In this document: positions 23,538 to 39,667 of the stretch, one piece after another
Layout of the letters: each line of letters opens with the position of its first letter
Position numbering within the stretch: the stretch's first letter is position 1
Source: an uncultured bacterium
GTDB taxonomy: Bacteria > Zixibacteria > MSB-5A5 > CAIYYT01
Direction: 5' to 3'
Length of the DNA stretch: 64,000 nt
Assembly: GCA_963726455.1 (NCBI GenBank)
Contig: CAVSCK010000004.1
Coordinates: 1,735,676-1,799,675 of the forward strand
Notes under the pieces: model-generated
The model's database searches: none
Seen by the model: the letters and a program-made list of their open reading frames with translations, nothing else
Told to the model about the DNA's origin: nothing
Translations under genes and position numbers: made by a program

Positions 23538-24859
23538 TTAGAATCCACGCATTCCACCGAAACCGCGCATCGGCTGTGAAGCGGTCGTGGGTTTCGTTGA
23601 CTCTGTAGGTGAGCCCACGATAATCTTCATACCTTCCTTGAGCACCCGTGACGAGACGACTTCAGTGTTAGTGTTGTCCGTCATGCCGGTTCGAACTGGA
23701 GCGGCGGCCAATTGCCCGAGGGAGTCCAGGTACCACACCATTGGGATAGTCCGGGGCCCATTGCCGTTGCGACCCTGTCGATCACCGCCCATTCCTTGTC
23801 CCATGCCCTGGCCCATACCCGCACCCATCCCCGATCCCGTTCCCTGTCTACCGGCAAATGACTCACGCCCACCTGGTGTGTTGAGTCGCCGCGATCTCCT
23901 GCTCGCTGCTGTTGCCATTTGGCTCTCATCGCAGCCACAACTTTGTCAGGCGGCTGGAAACGCAACGCCTTGCTGGGAATCAACATGACACCGGTGTGCT
24001 TTTCGGTGACGAAACTGACAGTAGCGGTCATGCCTGGCAGCAGAAGGCCTTCGGTGTTATCCGCCGCAATCACAACCGTGTAAGTTACGACGTTGGAGAC
24101 AGTGCGCGGCTGGAGACGTACTTGCTGGACACTGCCCTTGAATTCCTTGTTCATATATGCGGCAACTTCAAACTGCACGTCCTGTCCATCCTTGATCTGC
24201 CCGATATCGCTTTCGCCAACATCAGCCAGAATTTGCATGCGCGTAAGGTCCTCGGCAATTTCGAATAGAGTCGGTGTTGACAGACTAGCGGCGACGGTTT
24301 GTCCGCCCTCCACGTTTCTGTTTGTAATGACACCACTTATAGGGGCGCGGATGACAGCGTACTGCAAATTCCGCTGAGCCCTGTCTAGCGCGACTTTCGC
24401 CGATTTCAGATTGGCTTCCTGAACCTTAACGTTTACCACGGTCGGCAAATAGTCGGCGTCCGAGATCAAACTGGAGTCGAACAGCCGCTTGGCCCGATTG
24501 TATTCTATCTGCGCTTGTTCCAACTGTGCCTCAACGCGCTGCTGACTTGCTTGCGCATCCATTACGGAAGATCTCAGCAGTGTAGTATCCAGAACAGCTA
24601 GGATTTGCCCTTCTCTCACCCGATCGTTGAAATCTACATAAATTGAATCGATGATTCCCGAGACCTGCGTTCCAACTTGTATGGAGGTAACGGGCGCCAA
24701 TGTACCTGTTGCCGAAACGGTGCTCTGGATATCGCCAAGCGTCACCGTCGCGAAATCGTAACGAGGATCTGAGGCGTCAAGACTCCTAAAGAAGATCAGG
24801 TATGCCGCCACGACAACGACTACTACCGCACCAACATATATCAGGATTCGCTTTCGCAT
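23538..24859 (-). pseudogene. MacA-like periplasmic adaptor subunit, frameshifted near 23878 (or sequencing error)
   Basis: VSATGTL...VGTQVSGII, IRAPISGVI, TPTLFEIAEDL, LLPGMTA. The C-terminal GMGQGMG linker and VRTGMTDNTNTEVVS lie in another frame. Confidence 0.85.
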
Positions 24860-24979
24860 TTGTCTTTCTCCACGCGCATGTTATTCCTCGGTTGAGTACC
24901 CTTTGTACAGGTCGATATTCCGTCCATACTTCACTATGTTTTCTGACAGTGTTTCCACGCTTTAACTTGTGCCCTGAAT

Positions 24980-24997
24980 TCGACTCCAAGGAGTCGA
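24980..24997. promoter_or_regulatory. Palindrome TCGACTCC-AA-GGAGTCGA upstream of the exporter operon
   Basis: Perfect 8-bp inverted repeat about 120 bp upstream of the adaptor start codon. Confidence 0.35.
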
Positions 24998-25149
24998 TTT
25001 GTAACAGCACTAACAGTTTAGCATCTATCGGCGGCCAAAAGCAATGGGTATTTGTCCGGAATGGCGCGGTTTAGAGGCCGGTGAGGAGGTCGTCGAGTAA
25101 ACATCTAAAGTCCAGATGATTACGATGGTATCCGCCCTACTGCTCCCCT

Positions 25150-25197
25150 GACCACGAGGATTCTCTTGGAAAACGCTTATTAAATGTTGTGCACTAC
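25150..25197 (+). repeat. Direct repeat copy 1 (48 bp), left of the DHFR-family gene
   Basis: GACCACGAGGATTCTCTTGGAAAACGCTTATTAAATGTTGTGCACTAC; 38/48 ungapped identity to 25898-25945 by manual alignment. Confidence 0.75.
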
Positions 25198-25281
25198 TTC
25201 GTAACAGAATATTTGAGACTTCGTTTACCTACTTTGAACGAGGCATACAGATAGTGATCCAGATGCTGGAGGAACTCAGTC

Positions 25282-25875
25282 ATGCGAAGAGTTATTGTGC
25301 TTGAACATATCTCCCTTGATGGTGTCATACAAGCCCCAGGCGGGCCTGACGAGGACACTAGCGGCGGCTTCGCGTATGGCGGGTGGATAAGTTCATATTC
25401 CGACCCTATTCTTGCAGCAGTCATAAGAAAGGCGATGAACATGCCGTTTGACCTGTTGTTAGGGCGCAAAACCTTTGATATTTGGGCGCCATACTGGCCG
25501 CAACATTCGGACGCCTGGCCGGGCGTTAACACGGCGACCAAGTATGTCGCCTCGAATACCATGACTTCTCATGAATGGCAGCCGTCCGTATTTTTGAACG
25601 GAGATATTGCAGAAAAAGTGGCCAAAATCAAGCAACAGCAAGGGCCGGATTTGCACGTTTGGGGAAGTGGTAATCTCATTCAGACGCTTATCAAGCATGA
25701 TTTGGTCGATGCGTTCTGGCTGATGATATATCCGATAACGTTGGGCGGCGGAAAACGGTTGTTTGCCGACGGCACGATGCCGGCCGCGTTTACGGTGACG
25801 GAAAGCAAAGTCGGCTCGAGTGGCGTTATCTTCGTGAATTACGAGCGTGCAGGCGCAATCACAATTTGCACTTGA
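25282..25875 (+). CDS. Dihydrofolate reductase-family (RibD C-terminal-like) protein
   Basis: [44 protein letters not shown]; GGAGG RBS. Confidence 0.9.
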
Positions 25876-25897
25876 TGTAAGACAATGGGAGTCAACC

Positions 25898-25945
25898 GAC
25901 CACGAGGACTCTTTTGGAAAGCGCCGGCTAAATGGGGAGCACTAC
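25898..25945 (+). repeat. Direct repeat copy 2 (48 bp), right of the DHFR-family gene
   Basis: GACCACGAGGACTCTTTTGGAAAGCGCCGGCTAAATGGGGAGCACTAC. Confidence 0.75.
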
Positions 25946-26072
25946 ACTGCTTGCTAAAAATATCTTCAGCAAAGCAGTAATGATCCGTCGTAAGGAATAA
26001 GAAGGCCGTTATATTTCAGACGAAAAGCGGCCCAATGTCTGTGGCAACGGATCGTCGTAAGGCAAAAAGGAC

Positions 26073-26100
26073 TTGACAGATTCGGATTAACGACTATATT
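26073..26100 (+). promoter_or_regulatory. sigma70-like promoter of the aromatic amino-acid operon
   Basis: TTGACA (26073-26078), 16 nt, TATATT (26095-26100); the leader ATG follows after 8 intervening nt. Confidence 0.7.
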
Positions 26101-26108
26101 GGATCAAC

Positions 26109-26213
26109 ATGACGAACTCGACCTACATATTGGTAACCCTCTGCTCCGCTATCGCCAGTCTCTATTATTGGTGGTATTCTTTTGATATGGACGGTGGGTT
26201 AGTGCCGGTGTAG
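26109..26213 (+). CDS. trpL: Attenuator leader peptide, 34 aa, with a YYWWYSF control-codon cluster (absent from the ORF track)
   Basis: Manual translation MTNSTYILVTLCSAIASLYYWWYSFDMDGGLVPV*; TAT TAT TGG TGG TAT at 26163-26177. Confidence 0.85.
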   Translation: MTNSTYILVTLCSAIASLYYWWYSFDMDGGLVPV

Positions 26214-26274
26214 CCGAGTCACGCATAGGCAAAATTGAACCCACTGTCCAGCAGGACAGTGGGTTTTTTGTTTT
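26188..26274 (+). terminator. Attenuator: antiterminator segment plus intrinsic terminator
   Basis: Terminator AACCCACTGTCC (26238-49)-AGCA-GGACAGTGGGTT (26254-65)-TTTTGTTTT. Leader segment TGGACGGTGGGTT (26188-26200) can pair with the same 5' arm (13 bp, one G-U), so the two structures are mutually exclusive. Confidence 0.88.
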
Positions 26275-26285
26275 AGGAGCAAGAA

Positions 26286-27755
26286 TTGAACATCTTCGAA
26301 GTACTTAGTCAGACAGACGGACCCAGGCACGTTCTGGACATCGAGGAGATCGATCTGCCCGGTGACCTGGAAACACCGGTGTCCGCCTTCCTCAAATTGC
26401 GGAATCATGGTGCCCGGTTCCTGCTTGAATCCGCAGAGGATCCCAAGTCCATTGGTCGCTATACTTTTATTGGCATCGATCCGCTGTTGCGGCTGGAAAT
26501 CGGACAGGAATCGACTGCTGTGTCGAGTGGGACGACGAAACTGAACATCCCGCATTCTGAGAAATACACGCCATTTGACGGATTGAAGCGACTGCTCGAT
26601 CGGTTCGAAATCAAATCTGCGGGAGCCGAAATTCCACTTCTGGGAGGAATCGTCGGTTTCACATCCTTCGAAATCGTCGGCTTCTTTGAGCCGCGTCTGA
26701 AACCGCTGCTTCCGCCTTCCGACTGGCCCATGGCTCTTTACTACTTCGTCGATACGCTTCTGGTGTTCGATCATTTTACCCGTCGCATGCGCCTGATGAG
26801 ACTTCGATCGCAGGGGCAAGACCTGACTGCCGACAGTCCGCGTGTAAGTCTGCGACAGATTGCGGAGGCACTGGCGGCTGAGAGCATCGGCTCAAATCAC
26901 AGCAGCACAATTCCGGGAAACGGCTACCGCTCGAATTTCTCGGCGGATGGCTTCGAAGAAATGGTTCGGCAGACCAAGGATCACATCGTCAAAGGAGATG
27001 TTTTCCAGGCAGTTGTCTCTCAATGTGAGACGCGAAAATCTAACGCCGAGGGATTTCATCTCTACCGCGCCCTGCGTATGCTGAACCCCTCACCATATAT
27101 GTACTATCTGAATTTCGGAGACATCGAGTTGATCGGTTCCTCACCGGAGGCACTGGTCAAGCTGCAAGATCGTCGCGCCCTGATACGTCCTATCGCGGGA
27201 ACAAGGCGCCGCGGCAGATCGCCCGAGGACGATCGCCGTATGGCGGAGGAGTTGCTGGCAAGCGAGAAGGAACGCGCCGAACATGTGATGCTGATCGACC
27301 TGGCACGCAACGATCTCGGCAGAGTATGCCGCTTCGGTTCGGTCGCAGTACCGTCGAAATTTGAACTCGAATATTATTCCCATGTTATGCACATGACCTC
27401 GGAAGTCACCGGTGTGCTCCGCGATGACGTCAACTACTTTGATCTATTTCGCGCCGCCTTTCCGGCAGGGACTGTTTCCGGTGCGCCCAAGTTGCGCGCA
27501 ATGGAGATCATCGCTGAGTTGGAGGGACTCGCGCGGGGTCCGTACGCGGGCGCCGTGGGCTACTTCTCACTCTCCGGCGACCTCGACATGTGCATCACTA
27601 TCAGAACGATCGTCAAGCGCGGTGAATCACTTTTCATTCAGGCAGGCGCCGGCATTGTCTCCGACTCAATCCCGTCTGAGGAATACCTCGAAACGCGCAA
27701 CAAGATCGCCGCCTTGAAAGAGGCGGTGAAGACTACGGAGGAGGGACGGCTGTGA
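26286..27755 (+). CDS. trpE: Anthranilate synthase component I
   Basis: FLLES (Trp feedback site), NPSPYM, IAGTRRRG, KERAEHVMLIDLARND, FPAGTVSGAPK; TTG start with AGGAG RBS. Confidence 0.92.
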   Translation: MNIFEVLSQTDGPRHVLDIEEIDLPGDLETPVSAFLKLRNHGARFLLESAEDPKSIGRYTFIGIDPLLRLEIGQESTAVSSGTTKLNIPHSEKYTPFDGLKRLLDRFEIKSAGAEIPLLGGIVGFTSFEIVGFFEPRLKPLLPPSDWPMALYYFVDTLLVFDHFTRRMRLMRLRSQGQDLTADSPRVSLRQIAEALAAESIGSNHSSTIPGNGYRSNFSADGFEEMVRQTKDHIVKGDVFQAVVSQCETRKSNAEGFHLYRALRMLNPSPYMYYLNFGDIELIGSSPEALVKLQDRRALIRPIAGTRRRGRSPEDDRRMAEELLASEKERAEHVMLIDLARNDLGRVCRFGSVAVPSKFELEYYSHVMHMTSEVTGVLRDDVNYFDLFRAAFPAGTVSGAPKLRAMEIIAELEGLARGPYAGAVGYFSLSGDLDMCITIRTIVKRGESLFIQAGAGIVSDSIPSEEYLETRNKIAALKEAVKTTEEGRL

Positions 27756-28321
27756 TTCTGTTCATCGACAACTACGATTCGTTCATTTACAATTTGGTGC
27801 AGGCCATCGGCACGCGCACCAACAGTCTGCACGTGTACCGTCCTGACCAGATTACTATCGACGACATTGAACGCCTGCACCCGGACAAGATCATTATTTC
27901 ACCGGGTCCGGGCCATCCGCGCGAGGCGGTATTGTCCACAGAAGTCATCAGACGATTTCACAGATATATACCGATACTCGGTGTATGTCTTGGCCACCAG
28001 TGCATTGCCGAGGCATTCGGAGCATTGGTGCGTCCGGCCGATCGTCTGTTGCACGGAAAGACGTCCGACATCTATCATTTCGGCAAAGGCATAATGACCG
28101 GCCTGCCCAAACCATTCAAGGCCGCGCGCTACCACTCGCTGGTTGCCAGCGAAGAGACTCTGCCTCCCGAACTCAAAGTCGCCGCTTATACCTCGGAAGG
28201 CGAGGTCATGGGACTTATGCACGTATCGTCCCCTCTTTTCGGAGTGCAATTTCACCCGGAGTCAATTCTAACGCCCGACGGGATGAAGATTCTCGACAAT
28301 TTCCTGGAGGTGCAAGTATGA
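27752..28321 (+). CDS. trpG: Anthranilate synthase component II (glutamine amidotransferase)
   Basis: IDNYDSF, ISPGPG, LGVCLGHQ, RYHSL, QFHPES. Confidence 0.94.
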   Translation: MILFIDNYDSFIYNLVQAIGTRTNSLHVYRPDQITIDDIERLHPDKIIISPGPGHPREAVLSTEVIRRFHRYIPILGVCLGHQCIAEAFGALVRPADRLLHGKTSDIYHFGKGIMTGLPKPFKAARYHSLVASEETLPPELKVAAYTSEGEVMGLMHVSSPLFGVQFHPESILTPDGMKILDNFLEVQV

Positions 28322-29334
28322 TCAAGGATTGTCTGCAAAAGCTGATCGCTGCTGAATCGCTGTCGACCGATGAGACAATACAGTGCGTCGAGGAGATTGT
28401 CGATGGCACGGCATCCGACGCTCAGATCGCGGCATTCCTAACAGCTCTGCGCCAAAAAGGTGAGACCGGCACCGAACTCGCGGGATTGGTAACCGCATTC
28501 AAGAGGCATGCGGTCAAAGTTCCCCATCATCAGAATCAAGTATTTGATTGTTGTGGAACCGGTGGTGACGGATCGCAATCCTTCAACATCTCGACAGCGG
28601 CAGCGATAGTGATTGCTGCCGCGGACGTGCCCACCGCGAAGCACGGTAATAGAGCCGTGAGTTCGGCTTGTGGCTCGGCGGATCTACTGGAAGCGGCGGG
28701 CGCCAGGATCGGCGTTCCGCCTGAACATTCCGCCGCGATGCTTGACGAGATAGGTTTCTGTTTCTTGTTTGCTCCCCTCTATCATCCGGCAACAAAACGC
28801 GTGGCTATCGTCAGGCGCGAACTCGGATTTCGCACTGTCTTCAATCTACTGGGGCCGTTGTTGAATCCTGCGCAGACAACTCATCAGATGATCGGCACGT
28901 CGTCTGCCGCAAACGGCCGTCTAATTGCATCGGCAAACATGCACCTGACGGGCCTCAAGATGGTGGCGTTCCATAATTCTCACGGATTGGATGAATTGCT
29001 GCCCTCAGGAATCAATTACAGTTTCTGGGTGCAAGACGGAGTCCTGCAAGAAGCGAATGTTGAGTTGCCCGCTTTTATCGCGAACGGTCTGATGCCCGAG
29101 TCAATTCGTGGAGGAGACAGCGATACTAATGTGCGATTACTCCGGCAGGTACTGAACGCAGAGGAGTCGGCAATTACGAAAGTAACTTTGCTCAACTCTG
29201 CATTCGGTCTGTTGTGTGCGGACAGGGTCAAGTCCATCACTGACGGATATCGATTGGCTGAGGAAACACTTCGCTCCGGCACGGCAAAGAAGCTGTTTGA
29301 GCGATACATAGAATATTCGAACGCGAGCGTGTAA
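28318..29334 (+). CDS. trpD: Anthranilate phosphoribosyltransferase
   Basis: DCCGTGGDGSQSFNIST, AKHGNRAVSSACGSAD, RTVFNLLGPLLNP. ATG 28318 forms an ATGA overlap; the ORF-track start at 27985 is an extension. Confidence 0.94.
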   Translation: MIKDCLQKLIAAESLSTDETIQCVEEIVDGTASDAQIAAFLTALRQKGETGTELAGLVTAFKRHAVKVPHHQNQVFDCCGTGGDGSQSFNISTAAAIVIAAADVPTAKHGNRAVSSACGSADLLEAAGARIGVPPEHSAAMLDEIGFCFLFAPLYHPATKRVAIVRRELGFRTVFNLLGPLLNPAQTTHQMIGTSSAANGRLIASANMHLTGLKMVAFHNSHGLDELLPSGINYSFWVQDGVLQEANVELPAFIANGLMPESIRGGDSDTNVRLLRQVLNAEESAITKVTLLNSAFGLLCADRVKSITDGYRLAEETLRSGTAKKLFERYIEYSNASV

Positions 29335-30104
29335 TGCTGGATCAGATCGTCAAAAGCGTAAAGCGAAGTATTGAGGATCGTAACCGGACTGAGTGGGAAC
29401 GACAGGTCAATGAGCGTCTGGATCGTTGCGGCGATTCATTTCGGCTCTCAAGCTCATTAAGGCCAGGTGGCTTCGGATTCATTTTCGAAATCAAGCGAAA
29501 GTCGCCGAGTTCCAATGGTATTGCCATCGAGTGCGACGTTTCCGAGATAGCGAGAACCTATGAAACGCTGGGAGCCAGTGCCATCAGTGTCCTTACCGAG
29601 TACAATTACTTTGGCGGCAGTCTGGCCGATCTCGCTGCAGTCAGAAAGGCCGTGTCATTGCCGTTGTTGCGAAAGGAATTTATCGTCGACAAATTGCAGG
29701 TCGGTGAGGCAAAGATTCATGGCGCCGGCGCGGTACTATTGATAACGGCCATCTTGGACGATATCAAACTGCGAGAGTTCATCGGCTACGCCGAATCCAT
29801 CGGGCTGGATTCGCTGGTGGAAGTGCACGACGGTGATGAACTCGCGCGAGCCGTAGGCGCCGGTGCAAGGATCATAGGGGTCAATAACCGCAATCTGCAA
29901 ACCATGGCTATCAATCTCGAAACCTCTGAGAGACTCCTCCCCGCTATTCCTAAAGGCGTTCTGCGAGTGGCCGAGAGCGGTATAACTAATCGCCACGATG
30001 TGACACGCATGCGTGAAGCCGGGGCCGACGCGGTGCTCGTTGGTACCTCAGTTATACGATCTGCGGACATGACCGCCAAGATCAAGGAGTTGACGACGGT
30101 ATGA
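29334..30104 (+). CDS. trpC: Indole-3-glycerol phosphate synthase
   Basis: IFEIKRKSPS, ISVLTE, LLRKEFI, LVEVH, IGVNNRNL, VAESGI. Confidence 0.94.
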   Translation: MLDQIVKSVKRSIEDRNRTEWERQVNERLDRCGDSFRLSSSLRPGGFGFIFEIKRKSPSSNGIAIECDVSEIARTYETLGASAISVLTEYNYFGGSLADLAAVRKAVSLPLLRKEFIVDKLQVGEAKIHGAGAVLLITAILDDIKLREFIGYAESIGLDSLVEVHDGDELARAVGAGARIIGVNNRNLQTMAINLETSERLLPAIPKGVLRVAESGITNRHDVTRMREAGADAVLVGTSVIRSADMTAKIKELTTV

Positions 30105-30697
30105 CGAAAGTGAAGATTTGCGGAATTACCCGCGTGCCTGACGCCGTGACGGCCATTGAAGAAGGCGCGGATATGATCGGATTCATCCTTTCGGAATCAC
30201 CGCGGCGTACTGGCTTCGATCAGCTTCCCGGCCTCCTATCAGCCGCTGCTGGACGAGTGAATACCGTCGGCGTATTCGCCAAGCCTCAGGATTTGATTCA
30301 TTTCAGCGAATCCACTCAGAACTGCTTTGATTATTACCAGGTGTATTTCCCCTACCGCGCATTGACAGTTCGGCAGCCGAAGATCGGCTGGATTCGCGCC
30401 TCGTTTATTGACTCACAGGCCAGCGCCGTGGAGGCAAACTCTTCTGACCTGGTGCTGTACGATTTCAAGAACGTGGGACTCGACGTGCAATCCAGATTGT
30501 TTGCCGGTCGCTCCGGCGCACTCAGTATCAACGGATTCTTGGCCGGCGGCCTGACAGTCGACAATGTTGCGGATATGGTGAGGCGCTATTCACCTTACGG
30601 GGTTGATGTGGCACGAGGCACCGAATCACAACCGGGTATTAAAGACGCGTTCTTGATCCGTCGGTTTATTGATGAGGCGAGACATGCCAACGGTTAA
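30101..30697 (+). CDS. trpF: Phosphoribosylanthranilate isomerase
   Basis: VKICGIT, GFI...[26 protein letters not shown]. Confidence 0.88.
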
Positions 30698-31865
30698 AAA
30701 GCGCGGTTACTACGGTAACTACGGAGGGCAATTCGTTCCGGAGACTCTTGTTGGGGCGTTACAGGAGCTTGAGCAATGTTTCGCCGCTGCACGCCGCGAT
30801 AAGATATTCCGCAAAGAGTTCGAGGCACTCCTGCGGGACTTCGGTGGGAGACCAACGCCACTTTACTTTGCACAGAACCTCACTTCGCGTTGGAAAGGCG
30901 GTCGAATCTACCTTAAACGGGAGGACCTGAACCACACCGGCGCACATAAGATCAACAACACGATCGGTCAGTTGCTCCTGGCGAAACGTCTTGGCAAAAG
31001 CCGCATCGTGGCTGAAACCGGAGCCGGTCAGCACGGCACGGCCACCGCAGCGACCTGCGCCATGATGGGGCTGCAATGTGTGATCTATATGGGAAGCCAC
31101 GACGTTGCCCGCCAATATCCCAACGTCCAACGCATGCGCTACCTCGGCGCAGAAATCCGTGAAGTCAATGCGGGCACCAAGACTCTGAAAGAAGCAACTT
31201 CGGAAGCGATTCGCGATTGGGTGACGAACGTGAGGTCGACGCACTACGTCATCGGTTCTACCGTCGGACCCCATCCTTATCCGATGATCGTGCGGGAGTT
31301 TCAGTCAGTGATTGGCAAAGAAACAAAGAGTCAATGTCGGAAGTCATTGAAGAAGCTACCTGATATTGTCGTGGCCTGCGTAGGCGGCGGCTCTAACTCG
31401 ATGGGGATCTTCTCAGCGTTCCTGCGTGATTCCAAAGTACGGTTGATAGGCGTTGAATCTGCCGGCAAGAGCTTGGTGCCGGGGTTACATGCCGCGACGC
31501 TTGCCAAGGGTTCCCCCGGTGTACTTCATGGTGCGCATACATATATACTTCAGGACGCTGAGGGCCAGATCGAATTGACCTCCACCATTTCAGCGGGACT
31601 GGATTACCCCGGAGTGGGTCCCGAACACTCTTTCCTGAAAGATAACGGACGGGTTCAGTACGTCACCGTGACCGACAAAGAGGCGGTGAACGCTTTTCGC
31701 GAATTGTGCCTCCACGAAGGGATTATCCCGGCGTTGGAATCGAGTTTCGCATTGGCCTACGCGAAGAAACTTGCTCGCGAAGTCGGAAAGACCAAAACCA
31801 TTGTCGTCAACCTGTCGGGAAGAGGCGACAAAGACATGCAGAGCGTGGCGGAATATGAAGAATAA
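30684..31865 (+). CDS. trpB: Tryptophan synthase beta chain
   Basis: [52 protein letters not shown]; GAGG RBS before ATG 30684. Confidence 0.96.
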
Positions 31866-32658
31866 TCTGGAACAGAAGTTGTCGCAGCTAAAGCAGTCCG
31901 GACGCAAGGCGCTGATCCCCTTTGTCACGAGCGGCTTTCCCGACCAAACACGGTTTGGGCAATTGGCAGCCGCCTTGCTTGAAACCGAGCCGGACGTTCT
32001 CGAAATCGGACTCCCCCACTCTGATCCTCTTGCCGATGGGCCGGTTATTCAACACTCCTCGCACGTCGCAATTGCAAATGGATTCAAACTCGAACGGGCA
32101 TTTGATCAGATTACCGAGATGACTACAACGCACAGCGTCCCAATAGTCATTATGTGCTATTCCAACCTGATCCTGAGAATGGGCGCCAAGAAGTTCGTCA
32201 AACGAGCAAGCGCTGCTGGAGTGAGCGGCTTGATTGTCCCCGATATGATTATAGAAGAAAGTGCAGAGCTGCGTTCACTGTGTGCGGAGCGTGAAATCGC
32301 ATTCATCAATTTGATAGCGCCAACCACGACCCGTGAAAGAATTCAAAAGATTGTCCCGCTCAGCAGCGGCTTCGTCTATCTGGTCAGCGTCACGGGCACC
32401 ACGGGCATGCGCGATCATTTCGATGCACATATTGACCGGACGATTCGTGTAATTCGAAAAACAAGCCATCTGCCGATCTGTATCGGTTTCGGAATATCAT
32501 CGCCCGAGTTGGCGGCAAGAGCGGCAGCCCAGGCCGACGGTGTGATTATCGGCAGCAAGTTGCTGCAACTGGCAACGGAGTGTAACGGCGACAGTCGATT
32601 TGAGAAAGTACGATCATTCCTGACGGAGGTCAAAATGAGATTAGGAGAGCTTTCATGA
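31855..32658 (+). CDS. trpA: Tryptophan synthase alpha chain
   Basis: [46 protein letters not shown]; start at ATG 31855. Confidence 0.95.
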
Positions 32659-33023
32659 TTCGAGGCGTTCGAGGCGCGATTTGCGCGGCGGCTAACTCAC
32701 GTGAGGCAATCTTTGATGCCACCAAGACATTGCTGCTTCACATGTTTGCAAAAAACGATATCGAGCCGGAGAACATAGCTTCGATCTTTATGACGGCGAC
32801 ACCTGATCTGAATGCCGATTATCCCGCCTACACTGCGCGCGAAATGGGACTGACTCAGATTCCACTCATGTGTGCGACGGAAATCAGTGTGCCCGGAGCG
32901 TTGCAGAGAGTGATTCGGATATTGATACATGTGGAAACGAATAAGAAACAGAACGAGATCAAACATCTATACATGGGAGATGCCGCTAGACTTCGACCCG
33001 ACCTGGCGAGAGAGAACGAATGA
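32655..33023 (+). CDS. aroH: Chorismate mutase, AroH class
   Basis: [48 protein letters not shown]. Confidence 0.93.
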
Positions 33024-34036
33024 TGATCATAGTAATGAAAAAGAATGCCACCGTTCGCGAGATGGCCTCAGTCATAAAGTATATCGAGGAACTGGGACTG
33101 AAGCCGCATATCTCCGAAGGTGAAGAAAAGACCATTGTCGGGGCAGTGGGCAATGACAGGACTATCGACAAAGAAAAATTGCTGGCTCTCGACGGCGTCG
33201 AGGCCGTCATGCCGATCCTCAAGCCCTACAAGCTGGCATCGAGGGAGTTCAAGCCGGAGCGCACGATCGTCAGTCTCAACGGCACCAAGATCGGTGGTGA
33301 TAACGTCGTGGTGATGGCGGGCCCGTGCGCGGTGGAAAGCTATGAACAGGTTCTGGAGGCAGCCATAGCTGCCAAACAGGCGGGCGCCAAAATCCTGCGT
33401 GGCGGCGCATTCAAACCGCGAACTTCTCCCTATGCATTTCAAGGGCTCGGCCGCCAGGGTTTGGAAATTCTCGCGCGCGTCCGCGAGGAAGTCGGAATTC
33501 CCATTGTGACCGAATGCCTGTCGCAAGACGACGTCAATTTGCTTTCTGATTACGCCGACATCATTCAGATTGGTGCGCGCAACATGCAGAATTTTTCCAT
33601 GCTGGAAAAGGTCGGCAAACAGTCGCGACCGGTTCTACTCAAACGCGGGATGATGTCGACGATCGAGGAGTTACTGATGTCGGCCGAGTACATACTCTCC
33701 AACGGCAACTATAATGTTATCCTGTGTGAGCGCGGCATCCGCACGTTCGAACCGTTGACGCGCAATACCTGCGACATCGCCGCCGTACCGGTATTGAAAT
33801 CACTAACGCATCTCCCGGTCATTCTTGATCCATCTCACGCCACAGGTGAACGTCACTTGATATCTCCCGTATCGCTGGCGGCCGTTGCGGCAGGAGCTGA
33901 CGGATTGATTATCGAAATCCATCCGCATCCGGACAAAGCGTTATGCGACGGGCATCAGTCGCTCAATCTGACGCAGTTCGCCCAATTGATGCAGACACTC
34001 AAACCGGTGGCACAGGCCGTCGGCAGAGACGTATGA
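33020..34036 (+). CDS. aroF: DAHP synthase type I-beta with N-terminal regulatory (ferredoxin-like/ACT) domain
   Basis: [56 protein letters not shown]; the N-terminal 70 aa resemble Thermotoga-type regulatory domains. Confidence 0.94.
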
Positions 34037-34866
34037 CGAACGGCTCAAAGTTGCGTGTCGGCATTCTCGGCCTGGGACAAATCGGCGGATCGATAGCGCT
34101 TGGCTTGAAGAAGCAGCAATCGTATTTAGTCGCCGGTTACGACATAAATCATTCCCTCATGCAAGCGGCGCAGGGCAGGCAGGCAGTTGATTTGGTCTGC
34201 TCGTCAGCCGCGGAGTTGATTGAACAGAGTCAGATTCCGATCATTGCTTTGCCGATCGCCGGCATAATTGAAACTCTGCGTGAATATCGCAAACCGTTAC
34301 TCTCAAAACTGGCGGTTAGCGACACAGGATCGCTCAAGAGTGCGATTATGGCGGAAGCGGCGAATCTTGGAATCAACAACTTCATCGGTGGACACCCCCT
34401 CGCCGGAACCGAACTGCGCGGAGCCGAATCCTGGAACGCGGCATTGTTCGAAGGCGCCAATTACTTCATCACGCGAAACAACGACACAAGGCCCGAGAGT
34501 CTAAGTCATATCATCTCGCTGATCGAAGCTCTGGGCGGCGTGAAAAGGGAAATCGCAGCAGACGTTCATGACATGATATTCGCCACCACCAGCAACCTGC
34601 CACATGTACTCGCTTATGTGCTCAGACACTTGTATTCGGAGAGGAAATCTCAGCACTCAGTTGCAGAACTATTCGCCTGCCCCAGCTTCAACGGCATTAC
34701 GCGCGTCGCGAAATCCGACCCCGAGATGGTGTTTCAGATGCTCTGGCACAACCGGGATAATCTCAGGCGCGCGCTGGCGGAATTGAACTTTAGATTGACA
34801 GACATCCAAAATGCCATAGATAACACAGATGAAGTTCAGTTTCGTCGACTGTTCAATATCGGCTGA
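34033..34866 (+). CDS. tyrA: Prephenate/cyclohexadienyl dehydrogenase (no ACT domain)
   Basis: [37 protein letters not shown]; ATG 34033 overlaps the aroF stop. Confidence 0.88.
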
Positions 34867-34887
34867 GCTTTCTGGAGTCTAACAACA

Positions 34888-36147
34888 GTGCCAATAAGAG
34901 GAACACTTGCTCTTCCCGGCGATAAATCGCTGTCACATCGAGCGATCATGTTTGCCGCTCTGGTAAGAGGAACATCGAAGGTGACGAACCTTAGCAGAGG
35001 CGCGGATGTTTGCACAACCAGAGAGGTGTTCTCGAAACTCGGAACAGTTTTTCACACTGAAGGTGAAGCGCTCTTAATAGATGGCGGCGGCATCGAATCA
35101 TTCTTCACAGACAACTCCCGACTTTACTGCGGCAACTCGGGTACTACACTGAGACTGCTGCTCGGGATATTGGCAGGAAGCAGGGTCTCGTGTGAACTTT
35201 ACGGCGATGAATCACTCAATCGGCGTCCCGTGAAGCGAGTGATCGACCCGCTCACGCTGATGGGCGGCGATCTGCATTCGGTTGACGGAAGTGATCGACC
35301 GCCGGTGCGCGTAAGGGGAGCGTCGCTGCACGGAATTGATTATGAGTCGCCGGTGGCGTCGGCGCAGGTGAAGTCCGCAGTCCTGTTGGCTGCAATCAAC
35401 GCGTCAGGCGTCACGCATTACCGCGAACCGGCCAAATCGCGCGATCACACCGAACGATTCCTTGAATGGCAAGGTTACCCCATTGCGGTAGCTGGAACCG
35501 AGATCACGATGGCGCCCGGGGGAATTTTGACGCCATTTGAATATAAAGTGCCGGGCGACATTTCCACGGCGGCATTCTACATCGTGGCCGCCTTACTCAC
35601 TGCGGGCAGCGAGCTATTGCTGCAGAACGTCCTGCTCAATCCAACCCGCACCGGCGCACTGGAAATTCTGGAAAAGATGGGCGCCGAAGTCAAGTACGAG
35701 AATTGTCAGGTGCGAAGCGGTGAACCGGTTGGTGACGTGCTGGTGAATCACTCGCCCTTGATCGGACGGGACGCTACCGGAATTGATACGGCACGTTTCG
35801 TTGATGAAGTCCCCATACTTGCAGTGGCAGCAATGTTTGCGCAGGGCACGACCGTCTTCCACAATATTGGCGAATTGCGCGTCAAAGAATCTGATCGCGC
35901 GCAAGGTATAGTTGACGTGCTGGCATGTTATGGCTGCAAGTCCGAGATTCAAGGAGACAAATTGGTCATCGAAGGAGGAGTAGACGCCAGGCAGAAAGCT
36001 CCATCGCACCAGAATGATCACAGATTGGCAATGATGATCGAAATCATCGAGCTGGTTCGCAGGGGGCAGGTGTCCGGCGAATACCGCAACACGATCGCAA
36101 TTTCAGCTCCGGAGTTTTACGATAATCTTAAGAGAATAATTCATTAG
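34888..36147 (+). CDS. aroA: EPSP synthase
   Basis: LPGDKSLSHRA, CGNSGTTLR, SAQVKSA, SRDHTE, PGDISTA, ELRVKESDR, DHRLAM. Confidence 0.93.
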   Translation: MPIRGTLALPGDKSLSHRAIMFAALVRGTSKVTNLSRGADVCTTREVFSKLGTVFHTEGEALLIDGGGIESFFTDNSRLYCGNSGTTLRLLLGILAGSRVSCELYGDESLNRRPVKRVIDPLTLMGGDLHSVDGSDRPPVRVRGASLHGIDYESPVASAQVKSAVLLAAINASGVTHYREPAKSRDHTERFLEWQGYPIAVAGTEITMAPGGILTPFEYKVPGDISTAAFYIVAALLTAGSELLLQNVLLNPTRTGALEILEKMGAEVKYENCQVRSGEPVGDVLVNHSPLIGRDATGIDTARFVDEVPILAVAAMFAQGTTVFHNIGELRVKESDRAQGIVDVLACYGCKSEIQGDKLVIEGGVDARQKAPSHQNDHRLAMMIEIIELVRRGQVSGEYRNTIAISAPEFYDNLKRIIH

Positions 36148-36188
36148 GTCATGAGGACTTCTGACTAGAGTCAACGAAGGAAGACGCC

Positions 36189-37085
36189 ATGCAATACTTG
36201 TATATCAATGGGAAATATCGGTCTACCGCCCTTGACAACATTTCGACGATGGTGCAGGCGTTCAACTACGGAACGGCCGCGTTTGAAGGCATGAAGGCAT
36301 TCTACAATCCTGCAACCCGGAAATCTTATGTATTCAGGCCAGATCAGCATTTTCAGCGGCTCACCAAGAGCGCGGAGATGATTGACATCGAATTGAAACT
36401 GACATTGGATCAGTTTGTGGGTGCGATTGCGACATTGATCCGAAAGAACAAGATTGCGGATGACACTTACATCAGGCCCATCGTCTATCGTGATTTCAAG
36501 GGAGTGGGCCTGTCCAAACCATCTGGCTACGGCGTCTCCATCTTTACGCAGCCGTCTCCGCACTCATCCGGCAACCGCCTGCGCGCTTGTTTTGTATCAC
36601 AGCGGCGACCGGTGGACGGCACATTCTCCGTAAAATTGACCGGAAATTATCTGCTATCATATTTTGCCTATCGCGAAGCCAACCGAAAAGGATATGACGT
36701 GGGCATTCTGCAATCCTCTGACGGATACCTCTCGGAAGCCACGGTTATGAATCTGTTCCTTGTTCGTAAAGGGCAGCTCTTAACTCCATCTACGGATTGC
36801 GGCGCGTTATCGGGCATTACTCGCCTAAGCGTAATGCAAGTTGCGAAGGGACATCTTGGTCTGCGAGTGTCCGAAGGCAAGTACCGCAAGGAAAGTTTGC
36901 TCGATGCCGATGAGGCGTTTCTAACCGGCACCGGTTCGGGGGTCAATTTCATTGCACAGATCGAAAAGAAGAAGCTCGGCGGGTCGGGAAAGAATGGTGT
37001 TTCAGCCCAAGTCGCCGCGACGTACGAGGACTTGGTGCGCGGCCGGCTCAGCGAATATTCCGACTGGCTGGTGCCCCTCAAATAG
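36189..37085 (+). CDS. Fold-type IV PLP enzyme (IlvE-like aminotransferase), candidate aromatic aminotransferase
   Basis: YGTAAFEGMK, YIRP, catalytic K in VKLTGNY, YLSEAT.MNLF, LSGITR.SV, EAFLTGT. Confidence 0.8.
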   Translation: MQYLYINGKYRSTALDNISTMVQAFNYGTAAFEGMKAFYNPATRKSYVFRPDQHFQRLTKSAEMIDIELKLTLDQFVGAIATLIRKNKIADDTYIRPIVYRDFKGVGLSKPSGYGVSIFTQPSPHSSGNRLRACFVSQRRPVDGTFSVKLTGNYLLSYFAYREANRKGYDVGILQSSDGYLSEATVMNLFLVRKGQLLTPSTDCGALSGITRLSVMQVAKGHLGLRVSEGKYRKESLLDADEAFLTGTGSGVNFIAQIEKKKLGGSGKNGVSAQVAATYEDLVRGRLSEYSDWLVPLK

Positions 37086-37255
37086 CGCCCGTCGCGGGCA
37101 ATTGCATCTCCCAGATTCCTTCAGATTCCCGCCACAGAACTCCAAATTCTGTTGCGATTCTTCGTATTCTAACTGGAAATGGTGGGCACAAATGGTGAGA
37201 AAGTCCTTTGCTGAATCTAGGAAATCGTAGCAATTAATCTTAAGAGGATCGGGGC

Positions 37256-39667
37256 GTGGATAGTTATCGCGGTGATCGTTTAGCATTCGGACAACCGGGA
37301 ATTGAGCCACGTTGGACGCGTGGAAACAAGGATGGGGTCGGCACCGCCTATTCGGCGGCCAGCCGGATCTGGTTTACCTTGTGGAATGGAATCTTGACGG
37401 AGGTTTACTATCCGACAGTCGATCGGCCGCAGTTGCGCGATATGCAGTATCTCATCAGTGATGGCGAGAGCTTCTTTCACGACGAAAATCGCCATCTGGT
37501 CACGGAAATGGAACCGCTGTCTCCACTGGCTCTGGGATATCGAATTATCAACACCGACAAACGCGGCCGTTATTCCATCACGAAAGAAGTGATCGCCGAT
37601 CCTCACCTTTCCTGCATTCTGCAGAGGACCCATCTGTCAGGAGATGAAGACTTCCTGTCGCGACTTCACCTCTATGTACTATGTGCCCCACATTTGAATG
37701 TCGGCGGAGCAAACAATAACGCCTACGTGATTGAAGTCTCTGGAAGAGAAATTCTCATCGCCGAAAAGCAAGGCACCTGGATGGCATTAATGGCGTCCAT
37801 TCCGTTTTGCCGGCTGTCTGTCGGCTACGTCGGCCGCAGTGACGGTTGGACTGATATTGCCCGCAACTATCACTTGGATTGGGAATTTGACCAGGCCACC
37901 AACGGTAACGTAGCACTGACCGGCGAGATTCCGCTGGATGGCCAACGGGAATTCACGCTGGGTCTGGCATTGGGCGAAAGTCTGCACAGCGCCGTGACTA
38001 CACTGTTCCAGTCCTTGGGAGTTCCGTTCGAGACTCAGATGACGCGTTACGTTGAGCAGTGGAGCCGTCCCTGGCGCAATATCCAGCCACTGGAAAAAGT
38101 GTCCGGTGACGAAGGCCGCTTGTATCGCAAGAGCTACACTCTTCTTATGTCCCACGAAGACAAGACGTATCCCGGAGCTTTGATTGCATCTATGTCGATA
38201 CCCTGGGGGGAGGCCAAGGGCGATGAAGACATGGGCGGCTATCACCTTGTCTGGACGAGGGATATTGTCAACAGCGCTACCGGCTTACTCGCTGCCGGAA
38301 ATAAGGAGACACCTCTGCGAGTCCTGATTTATCTCGCAGCCAGCCAGCAGGAGGATGGCGGTTACCCCCAAAATTTCTGGATCGACGGACAGCCATACTG
38401 GAGCGGCGTCCAACTTGATGAGGTTTCCTTTCCGATCTTGTTAGCGTGGCGATTGCGCAGAGAAAACGCCCTTCAGGACTTCGATCCTCTGACCATGGTT
38501 CTACGTGCAGCCGGGTATATCATAAAACATGGCCCGGCTACTCAGCAGGAACGCTGGGAAGAAGCGAGCGGCTATTCGCCGTCTACACTGGCAGCCAATA
38601 TTGCCGCCTTGATCGCGGCAGCTCATTTCGCCGAGGAACGCAAGGAATTGTCCACTGCTCTGTATCTCAAAGAATATGCCGACTTCCTGGAGCAGCGTCT
38701 CGAAAAGTGGACGGTAACGACCGAAGGCGTGCTGCATCCCGCCATTAGCAGGCACTACATCAGAATCAAACCGGTTGACGTAGACGATCCCTTTCCGGAT
38801 GAAGATCCGAATCATGGGATGCTGACTATTCCCAACCTCAAGCCCGGCGCCGACAATCATTTCTCTGCCAAGGATATCGTTGATGCCGGCTTCCTGGAAT
38901 TTGTCCGCTACGGAATCCGCAGACCGGATGATCCACTAATAGTAGATTCGCTGAAAGTGGTCGATTCGGTTCTGAAAGTTGAGACACCGGCGGGACCGTG
39001 CTGGCATCGGTACAATCACGACGGCTTTGGTCAATGTGAAGATGGGGGGCCTTATCATGGCTGGGGAAAGGGTCGCGCCTGGCCATTACTAACAGGTGAG
39101 CGCGGACATTATGAACTGGCAGCGGGCGGAGATGTAAACCTGTACTTGCGCACTATCAATCGCCTCGCGTCACCGGCGGGACTTCTTCCCGAACAGGTTT
39201 GGGATGAACCGGATCGCCCAAAGATCCACATGTATTTTGGCAAACCAACCGGTGCTGCCATGCCGCTCATGTGGGCGCACGCCGAGTACATCAAACTATT
39301 GCGATCGGCATTTGACGGGGTGGTCTTCGACTACATTCCGGAGGTCGGCGATCGCTACCGCACTCGCTCGGGCTGCAAGTCGATCGAAATCTGGAAGCAT
39401 AATCGGCAGGTGACACAGGTTGTTACGGGATCAACCTTGCGCATTCAGGCCACGGGCGCATTCCGTCTTCACTGGACAGCAGACGAATGGCAGACTGTCC
39501 AGAACACTGATTCAACCTCCGTTGCTCTCGGCATCGACTACGTGGATGTACCGATCCGCCCCGATCAGCGCGCGCCTATCCGATTCACGTTCCTGTGGTT
39601 AACGGACATTCGCTGGGAAGGGCGTGACTACAGAGTCAACGTCACACTAAAGCCCCACGGGGACTAA
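37256..39667 (+). CDS. GH15 glucoamylase (glucan 1,4-alpha-glucosidase) with C-terminal carbohydrate-binding-like domain
   Basis: AFGQPGIEPRW, YHLVWTRD, QLDEVSFP, QERWEE, WHRYNHDGFG, WPLLTGERGHYE, LPEQVW, PLMWAHAEY; no signal peptide. Confidence 0.9.
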   Translation: MDSYRGDRLAFGQPGIEPRWTRGNKDGVGTAYSAASRIWFTLWNGILTEVYYPTVDRPQLRDMQYLISDGESFFHDENRHLVTEMEPLSPLALGYRIINTDKRGRYSITKEVIADPHLSCILQRTHLSGDEDFLSRLHLYVLCAPHLNVGGANNNAYVIEVSGREILIAEKQGTWMALMASIPFCRLSVGYVGRSDGWTDIARNYHLDWEFDQATNGNVALTGEIPLDGQREFTLGLALGESLHSAVTTLFQSLGVPFETQMTRYVEQWSRPWRNIQPLEKVSGDEGRLYRKSYTLLMSHEDKTYPGALIASMSIPWGEAKGDEDMGGYHLVWTRDIVNSATGLLAAGNKETPLRVLIYLAASQQEDGGYPQNFWIDGQPYWSGVQLDEVSFPILLAWRLRRENALQDFDPLTMVLRAAGYIIKHGPATQQERWEEASGYSPSTLAANIAALIAAAHFAEERKELSTALYLKEYADFLEQRLEKWTVTTEGVLHPAISRHYIRIKPVDVDDPFPDEDPNHGMLTIPNLKPGADNHFSAKDIVDAGFLEFVRYGIRRPDDPLIVDSLKVVDSVLKVETPAGPCWHRYNHDGFGQCEDGGPYHGWGKGRAWPLLTGERGHYELAAGGDVNLYLRTINRLASPAGLLPEQVWDEPDRPKIHMYFGKPTGAAMPLMWAHAEYIKLLRSAFDGVVFDYIPEVGDRYRTRSGCKSIEIWKHNRQVTQVVTGSTLRIQATGAFRLHWTADEWQTVQNTDSTSVALGIDYVDVPIRPDQRAPIRFTFLWLTDIRWEGRDYRVNVTLKPHGD

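Follow-up and report, generated by a model that had tools for sequence, protein, structure and literature searches.

A conserved leader-peptide attenuator with tryptophan and probable tyrosine input upstream of an aromatic supraoperon in Zixibacteria

The described systems closest to the element reported here are the trpL attenuator of Escherichia coli and the multivalent attenuators of enterobacteria, namely thrL, with threonine and isoleucine codons, and ilvL/ivbL, with isoleucine, leucine, and valine codons. The aromatic supraoperon of Bacillus subtilis, aroFBH-trpEDCFBA-hisC-tyrA-aroE, is controlled by the tryptophan (Trp)-activated RNA-binding protein TRAP together with internal promoters. 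To our knowledge, published leader-peptide attenuators come almost wholly from Proteobacteria and Actinobacteria, with a few from Firmicutes and Deinococcus. Here, a genuine, well-conserved, and previously unannotated attenuator is described immediately upstream of trpE in DNA of an uncultured bacterium of the Zixibacteria (assembly GCA_963726455.1, contig CAVSCK010000004.1, positions 1,735,676 to 1,799,675 of the forward strand); the whole stretch of 64,000 nucleotides that was analyzed is referred to as the window. The element follows the classical mechanism, with a putative leaderless start, Trp and probable tyrosine (Tyr) input, and a supraoperon as its target. It is best read as a leader-peptide attenuator of a 12-gene aromatic supraoperon, in which Trp is sensed almost certainly and Tyr probably.

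Individual aspects of this arrangement have counterparts elsewhere. The aroR leader of Corynebacterium glutamicum (Phe-Tyr-Phe), upstream of aroF, responds to limitation of phenylalanine (Phe) and not of Tyr, as related in PMC11802643 (citing Neshat et al., 2014). Leaderless regulatory open reading frames (ORFs) include 14 predicted leader-peptide ORFs in Deinococcus deserti, one of them for trpEGD (PMC4007540), and poly-Cys ORFs in mycobacteria (bioRxiv 10.1101/834739), while the concept of the supraoperon has been set out in PMC1173090. Neither a Trp+Tyr leader nor an attenuator from Zixibacteria was found described in the literature.

The switch is composed of the following elements, numbered from the first nucleotide of the window.

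26073-26100, forward strand: sigma-70-type promoter, TTGACA (26073-26078), 16-nt spacer, TATATT (26095-26100), 11/12 consensus matches
26109-26213, forward strand: leader ORF, 34 codons plus TAG (26211-26213), MTNSTYILVTLCSAIASLYYWWYSFDMDGGLVPV; ORFs of 29-35 codons with an aromatic cluster occur in 13 other loci
26133-26148, forward strand: region 1, the predicted anti-antiterminator 5' strand in the window, GUAACCCUCUGCUCCG; best upstream duplex partner of region 2 (-15.8 kcal/mol), also present in the minimum free energy (MFE) fold
26150-26176, forward strand: local hairpin of 10 pairs, terminator-like, with the Trp codons paired with CGCCAG and Tyr19/Tyr20 in the loop; present in the MFE fold
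26163-26177, forward strand: regulatory codon cluster UAU UAU UGG UGG UAU (Y19 Y20 W21 W22 Y23)
26189-26200, forward strand: region 2, the antiterminator strand, GGACGGUGGGUU / GGACGGTGGGTT, codons 27-31
26237-26274, forward strand: intrinsic terminator, 5' arm 26237-26249, loop AGCA, 3' arm 26254-26266, U-tract to 26274

The first-pass annotation of this DNA, made from the letters alone, had proposed a 34-codon leader with the motif YYWWY and a stop codon at 26211-26213, an antiterminator segment almost identical to the 3' arm of a terminator, and a strong U-tailed terminator before trpE. All three were borne out. Region 2, GGACGGTGGGTT (26189-26200), equals the terminator 3' arm, GGACAGTGGGTT (26254-26265), at 11 of 12 bases, and can form 12 bp, including one G-U, with the 5' arm (26238-26249) at a duplex free energy (dG) of -21.9 kcal/mol. 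The terminator (26237-26274) has a 13-bp GC-rich stem (26237-26266) and a tail, TTTGTTTT, reaching 26274, with a hairpin energy of about -23 kcal/mol (-22.8 to -24). The 196-nt leader as a whole folds at -65.6 kcal/mol (z = -3.3, 200 shuffles). The local hairpin (26150-26176) is followed by UUCUUUUGAU (TTCTTTTGAT), the whole span 26150-26186 being internal to the leader ORF. The hairpin may have an auxiliary structural role or act as a pause signal; a polymerase pause at this point could synchronize ribosome and polymerase.

Relatives were sampled as 13 further distinct trpE-upstream regions (L001 by genome match, the rest via contig look-ups), which together with the window give 14 loci and whose TrpE proteins are 49-69% identical to that of the window. 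TrpE relatives of >50% identity carry the labels Candidatus Zixiibacteriota, candidate division Zixibacteria, or GN15 in the protein database, and the remaining matches in the genome and metagenome scans, chiefly from Chloroflexota, are at <=49% identity; of the 160 loci returned by these scans, only L001 belongs to the same lineage. Judged by sequence comparison, the arrangement is beyond chance, as it is found again before trpE at each of the 13 additional loci from this phylum. All 14 loci possess the ORF, a U-tailed terminator just before trpE (-17 to -31 kcal/mol), and an antiterminator segment after the aromatic codons. Each leader has two to three Trp codons, and the frame and length of the ORF are kept, the sole indel in the coding part of group A (eight leaders) being 3 nt, while the peptide outside the aromatic cluster has diverged beyond recognition. 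The leader peptides are as follows.

Window: ..ASLYYWWYSFDMDGGLVPV
L001: ..TMGYYWWWYTSAMDSGAVPV
L161: ..FTVYFWWYRRLCDSGPVPV
L162: ..SVFTYWWYRHTLDSGLVPV
L163: ..TMGYYWWWYTSAMDSGTVPV
L164: ..MGFYYWWWFTHTKGSGTVPV
L165: ..TLINWSWWRLYTRDSGVVIVK
L170: ..TYGYYWWWYARTADSGAVPV
L166: ..HKLQYYYWRWCMLPTMIG
L172: ..FALHKWWWLSHNIGSDGV
L168: ..FSHYYWWYGYICDRIAESAY
L173: ..LSRYYWWYGYKYDRIAASAY
L175: ..LSCYYWWYSYRYDRIAASAV
L174: ..INRYWWWYRDTRVPDRGPGCVLSTR

The RNA elements have evolved in concert. In 14 of 14 loci, region 2 mirrors the terminator 3' arm base by base, changing whenever the 3' arm changes, and at one position the triplets formed by region 2, the 5' arm, and the 3' arm read U-A-U, U-G-C, C-G-C, and A-U-A. 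Covariation in relatives, which the first-pass annotation had named as a check on its model, is observed for all three strands over the 14 loci. Within the group A alignment, 84% of cells in the antiterminator helix are paired, as against 30-50% in controls for which the partner strand was slid; the helix contains three compensatory pairs, and its covariation score exceeds those of all 500 shuffles. The terminator stem has three columns with compensatory changes (RNAalifold).

The promoter at 26073-26100 is the sole promoter-like site between 25500 and 26600, its 3' end lying 8 nt from the leader ATG. This ATG lacks a Shine-Dalgarno sequence, unlike trpE, whose TTG start codon at 26286 is preceded by AGGAG at 26275-26279. 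The same layout, TTGACA-16-TAxxxT followed 6-9 nt beyond the -10 box by an ATG that lacks any Shine-Dalgarno-like motif, is present in 13 of the 14 loci; the exception is L174, in which 52 nt separate the -10 box from the ATG, so that its leader ORF is not leaderless. Because the -10 box lies 8 nt from the ATG and no Shine-Dalgarno sequence is present, the transcript from which the leader ORF is translated is probably leaderless or nearly so, its start being placed by promoter geometry. This abutment of promoter and ATG, leaving essentially no 5' untranslated region (UTR), had been overlooked in the first-pass annotation.

In the proposed mechanism, transcription would start at or a few bases from the leader AUG, and a ribosome would load on the 5' end without a Shine-Dalgarno sequence. 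When charged tRNA-Trp and tRNA-Tyr are ample, the ribosome would pass codons 27-34 and with them region 2 (26189-26200); with region 2 masked, the terminator (26237-26274) would form and transcription would end before trpE. A ribosome stalled with Y19, Y20, W21, W22, or Y23 in the A site would part region 1 from region 2 and leave the latter uncovered, and free region 2 would pair with the emerging 5' arm of the terminator, allowing RNA polymerase to read through. In the event of no translation, region 1 would keep region 2, and termination would follow by default. Because a stall at any Trp or Tyr codon of the cluster would free region 2, starvation for either amino acid would suffice to induce the operon, in the manner of an OR gate.

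The position of the codons was assessed by a footprint scan, with the ribosome assumed to shield the mRNA as far as 12 nt beyond the first base of the A-site codon; for each codon, the scan asked whether the 5' arm of the terminator is captured before synthesis of the 3' arm. For the window, the probability of the antiterminator is maximal through Y23, then 74% at S24, 53% at F25, and 4-29% from M27 to V34. Stalls spare region 2 up to and including Y23, coverage starting at codon 24, whereas translation to the stop passes over region 2. The scan agrees with the stall geometry put forward in the first-pass annotation, namely that stalls from Y19 to Y23 spare the antiterminator segment and that translation to the stop covers it. 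In groups A and B, the interval in which the antiterminator is free closes on the last aromatic codon. Measured from its first base, the final Tyr or Phe codon of the flank is 13-14 nt away from region 2 in every group A leader except L165 (seven of eight). All flanking Tyr fall inside the permissive interval of the scan, and they are therefore predicted to be no less suited by position to antitermination than the Trp codons. Of the weak Phe sensing that had been suggested for F25 (26181-26183), the geometry agrees, in that a ribosome stalled there would cover about 6 nt of region 2, but Phe is found at position 25 in the window only, and, because it is not conserved in relatives, comparison does not support F25 as a Phe sensor.

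Folding energies weigh against this model in some respects. Equilibrium folds always favor the terminator; equilibrium folding alone does not prefer the 1:2 helix over 2:3 in several members, 2:3 often being the more stable; and folds with a cut at the ribosome edge separate the state without a ribosome from that with a stalled ribosome poorly. Because equilibrium energies fail to decide between 1:2 and 2:3, the model leans on folding order and on the occupancy of region 2 in untranslated nascent RNA, where it is paired 88% in the window and 53-98% across the 14 leaders. That the folds are always on the terminator side would also suit an element with no ribosome-dependent switch, i.e., a constitutive terminator or one controlled by a protein or ligand (T-box, TRAP-like, or riboswitch), beside a fortuitous ORF. 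This is scarcely credible, however, given that an Rfam cmscan of 24000-38000 at E <= 10 returned no Trp_leader (RF00513), other leader, T-box, or riboswitch match, and that the length of the ORF (29-35 codons), its frame, the spacing of the ATG to the -10 box, and the Trp codons are kept in 14 loci while the peptide diverges, with a single coding indel in group A that preserves the frame. A ribosome-mediated attenuator is close to certain, and sensing of Trp by the leader is in little doubt.

The regulated operon is tightly packed, with most genes overlapping their neighbors by a few bases; it was delimited as follows from NCBIfam and Pfam matches, with start codons checked.

26286-37085, forward strand: regulated supraoperon of 12 genes
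26286-27755, forward strand: trpE, TTG start at 26286
27752-28321, forward strand: trpG
28318-29334, forward strand: trpD
29334-30104, forward strand: trpC
30101-30697, forward strand: trpF
about 30672-31865, forward strand: trpB
31855-32658, forward strand: trpA
32655-33023, forward strand: aroH-type chorismate mutase
33020-34036, forward strand: 3-deoxy-D-arabinoheptulosonate-7-phosphate (DAHP) synthase
34033-34866, forward strand: tyrA
34888-36147, forward strand: aroA (EPSP synthase)
36189-37085, forward strand: class IV aminotransferase (Pfam Aminotran_4), the last operon gene, after aroA

The genes for tyrA, chorismate mutase, and DAHP synthase overlap adjoining genes behind the same attenuator, and no pheA was annotated in the operon of the window by NCBIfam or Pfam. 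The gene order is the same in relatives, and aroH and tyrA are in the operon of 12 of the 14 loci. The class IV aminotransferase that closes the operon may act on aromatic or branched-chain amino acids, or may instead be an aminodeoxychorismate lyase. The DAHP synthase (33020-34036) has an N-terminal ferredoxin-like domain (Pfam DAHP_snth_FXD in orthologues). In Thermotoga-type DAHP synthases, this domain mediates feedback inhibition by Tyr and Phe. Because the enzyme bears this feedback-type domain, Tyr may act on the operon at the enzyme level and the attenuator level alike.

The first-pass annotation had staked its Tyr claim on conservation in relatives, and 12 of the 14 Zixibacteria leaders do keep Tyr or Phe beside the Trp run, with UAU/UAC variation and over TrpE identities down to 49%. 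With flank positions defined as those no more than two codons from the Trp run, 31 of 56 are Tyr, compared to 15 of 357 positions elsewhere in the 14 leaders, or 22 of 44 compared to 12 of 282 when one representative per distinct group is used; the background in the operon proteins is 2.5% of residues. Both UAU and UAC occur at flank positions, and Phe takes the place of Tyr there in L161 and L164. Group B leaders have five to six Tyr codons and two Trp codons (YYWWYGYKY). On the TrpE tree, all deep clades contain leaders with a Tyr flank, the basal L174 among them, and only two terminal branches, L165 and L172, are without it. Taken with the footprint geometry, these comparisons make co-sensing of Tyr by the leader probable, and an in vivo response to Tyr starvation would follow if ribosomes stall at these codons.

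Several observations count against Tyr sensing. No flanking Tyr is present in L165 (NWSWWR) or L172 (KWWWL), and the match with gene content is imperfect: L172 has tyrA without a Tyr flank, L174 lacks aroH and tyrA yet has RYWWWY, and L165 has neither tyrA nor a Tyr flank. The resulting 2x2 counts of Tyr flank against tyrA (11, 1, 1, 1) are too few and not clean, and the fit to an operon with tyrA and without pheA that the first-pass annotation had invoked is thus correct as to content and weaker as to association (L172, L174, L165). Three codons is also a small number for Tyr, which is ~8 times commoner than Trp in the operon proteins. In aroR of C. glutamicum (Phe-Tyr-Phe), the sole tested precedent, Tyr availability had no effect on read-through according to PMC11802643 (citing Neshat 2014); by this analogy, the presence of a codon would be insufficient by itself for sensing.

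The 5' Tyr codons are, in addition, part of the RNA structure. In group A, the RNAalifold consensus forms the 1:2 helix from the aromatic codons themselves (C/UACUAUUGGUGG) with ..CCGCCAUGGAUAGUGG, and the 5' Tyr codons (CUACUAUU, CUAUUA) are the region 1 strand pairing with GAUAG of region 2; a CUAU-type region 1 is also found in the best duplexes of L161, L162, L168, L170, L173, and L175. Because these codons pair with region 2, which is itself tied to both terminator arms, part of the Tyr conservation is possibly at the RNA level, and such four-way interlocked RNA could freeze Tyr codons without selection for Tyr. This leads to the alternative of a Trp-only attenuator in which Tyr codons are kept as the CUAY of region 1 facing GAUAG of region 2, or in which they tune elongation speed or hairpin stability near the Trp codons. 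It accounts for the consensus pairing of Tyr and Trp codons with GGAUAGUGG in group A, for CUAUUA in the predicted region 1 of L168, L173, L175, and L170, for the switches of L165 and L172 without a Tyr flank, for a Tyr flank that does not cleanly track tyrA, and for the lack of a Tyr response in aroR as reported by PMC11802643. It does not account for Tyr after the Trp run (Y23; Y17/19/21 in group B), which is loop in the consensus fold of group A, outside the 1:2 helix, and still conserved. Nor is the window easily explained, since there the 1:2 pairing has shifted, with region 1 at 26133-26148 and Tyr19/Tyr20 unpaired with region 2, and YY is retained all the same. Moreover, the five to six Tyr codons of group B exceed what pairing would need, and the Trp leaders encountered before trpE in other phyla lack flanking Tyr (RQWWWSMN, ENWWWQNS, SWWWWNNP). 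An operon with tyrA, chorismate mutase, and DAHP synthase would also be off in Trp-replete, Tyr-starved cells, barring other control. A Trp-only switch is hence possible but the less likely account, and the attenuator with Trp and Tyr input is preferred.

When the upstream regions of the 160 loci from the genome and metagenome scans were examined for short ORFs containing Trp, only a few unrelated leaders of the Trp-only kind emerged. On unrelated metagenome contigs, small ORFs that carry WWW or WWWW without flanking Tyr are located 5' of trpE (L128 553-639, L153 413-487, L160 828-986); these are likely ordinary Trp-only leaders of other phyla.

The stall site varies within the Zixibacteria. 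L166 (9810-9911) and L172 (9807-9914) are from sister genomes with the same synteny and near-identical terminators, and differ at the stall site (QYYYWRW vs HKWWWL); the comparison shows that Tyr and Trp codons are swapped rapidly inside one clade. L174 (9760-9923), the deepest-branching member, has the stall site RYWWWYR and a weak antiterminator (-12 kcal/mol), and its operon stops after DAHP synthase, without aroH and tyrA.

A bolder extension of the Trp and Tyr attenuator, which we consider speculative, is that the aromatic cluster forms a tunable multi-input sensor throughout the phylum, UGG, UAY, and UUY being exchanged in a fixed stall window to set sensitivity to Trp, Tyr, and Phe, with the leaderless peptide of group A perhaps doubling as a conserved hydrophobic micro-protein that has a separate role. 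The stall-window variants include YYYWRW and KWWW (the sister genomes), YYWWYGYKY with six Tyr, and FYYWWWF.

In the window, seven successive codons (26163-26183) are of the UNN type: UAU UAU UGG UGG UAU UCU UUU. In E. coli, the UNN codons of that set are all read by tRNAs with an i6A37-type modification. Because seven such codons occur in a row, the state of tRNA modification might be a further input to the switch.

The peptide has features that are neither required by the switch model nor common to groups B and C. Its N-terminal half is hydrophobic and transmembrane-like (Kyte-Doolittle 1.15-2.2) in the window (26112-26162) and in codons 2-17 of L001, L161-L165, L170, and L175, and it is absent from L166, L168, L172, L173, and L174. 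The sequence of this half is not itself conserved; codon position 2 is 82% pyrimidine and position 1 is 34%, a bias that points to selection at the peptide level. The VPV-stop tail (26202-26219, GTGCCGGTGTAGCCGAGT) has only synonymous changes within most of group A (CCG/CCT, GTG/GTA, TAG/TAA), and a 4-bp mini-hairpin, CGGU-GUA-GCCG, surrounds the leader stop codon; it may slow peptide release or have a role as RNA.

Such features would be expected if the peptide had its own function, either as a small membrane peptide, with its hydrophobic N-terminal half, an aromatic belt, and a DSGxVPV tail, or, in the manner of TnaC, as a nascent chain that senses free aromatic amino acids and arrests the ribosome. 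TnaC-type arrest peptides have a conserved Trp, an Asp, and a C-terminal Pro right before the stop, and their read-out is Rho-dependent. Here, Pro is at -2 (VPV-stop), in group A only, being absent from groups B and C and L174, and the read-out is an intrinsic terminator; a TnaC-like reading was rejected because the Pro is misplaced and not conserved outside group A. More broadly, a function of the peptide draws on the hydrophobic half shared, without sequence conservation, by group A and L175, on its codon position 2 bias, on the synonymous-only variation of the VPV-stop tail, and on the precedent of a trans-acting leader peptide, peTrpL of S. meliloti (PMC7298713). It is nonetheless improbable: groups B and C and L174 retain the RNA switch without the hydrophobic half and VPV tail, a complete terminator/antiterminator with the right stall geometry requires no such function, a Pfam search with the leader peptide gave no protein-family match at all, and an exhaustive hidden Markov model (HMM) search gave two called homologues among 1.8 billion representatives.

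The attenuator with Trp and probable Tyr input represents a conserved family in a candidate phylum without cultured members. The mechanism is classical and no concept is overturned by the finding; the family has two unusual design features, namely a putative leaderless leader ORF, and a mixed Tyr/Trp stall site before an operon that supplies Trp, Tyr, and the precursors common to them. Should Tyr sensing prove true, one promoter-proximal switch could safely govern a fused Trp-Tyr-shikimate operon, and the aromatic pair would join the short list of multivalent attenuators; if the multi-input reading is true, control of whole aromatic supraoperons by a single leaderless leader would be an undescribed arrangement. 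The succession TTGACA-16-TAxxxT, ATG 6-9 nt on, [YF][YF]WW[WY], GGAUAGYGG, and terminator offers a motif for annotation of Zixibacteria genomes, and the leader is a compact candidate two-input sensor for synthetic biology.

Compared with known systems, the element resembles E. coli trpL (Yanofsky model; RF00513) in its short ORF with tandem Trp codons, its four RNA segments (1:2, 2:3, 3:4), its intrinsic terminator directly before trpE, and the selection of the antiterminator by a stalled ribosome. It differs in having no sequence or covariance-model similarity to trpL, in its length (34 codons vs 14), in being apparently leaderless with no Shine-Dalgarno sequence, in a region 2 that is translated through entirely before the stop, in Tyr codons beside Trp, and in an operon to which chorismate mutase, DAHP synthase, tyrA, and aroA are added. 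With thrL and ilvL/ivbL, it shares the mixing of codons for several end products of the downstream pathway in one leader, leading to OR-type control; as far as sequence can tell, conserved codons for a second amino acid lie in the stall window before cognate biosynthetic genes, as is characteristic of multivalent attenuators, with an imperfect tyrA association (L172, L174). The Trp+Tyr pair, the phylum, and the number of regulatory codons (5 here vs 12 or more) set it apart from these. The aroR leader, as far as it is described in the source cited above, is likewise a leader-peptide attenuator with mixed aromatic codons at a DAHP synthase operon, and such C. glutamicum transcripts are often leaderless; aroR has no Trp codons, one Tyr codon, and no trp genes, whereas three to six Tyr and two to three Trp codons precede a trp-tyrA supraoperon in Zixibacteria. 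Like the leaderless ORFs of D. deserti and mycobacteria, the regulatory ORF would have its start codon no more than about 1 nt from the transcription start, with no 5' UTR; starts were mapped experimentally there and are deduced from promoter geometry here, and the phylum (FCB group) and codons differ. Finally, as in the B. subtilis supraoperon, trp, common-pathway, and Tyr-branch genes are united behind one terminator/antiterminator switch; the gene order differs, and control is exerted by TRAP in B. subtilis and, in the model favored here, by a translated leader in Zixibacteria.

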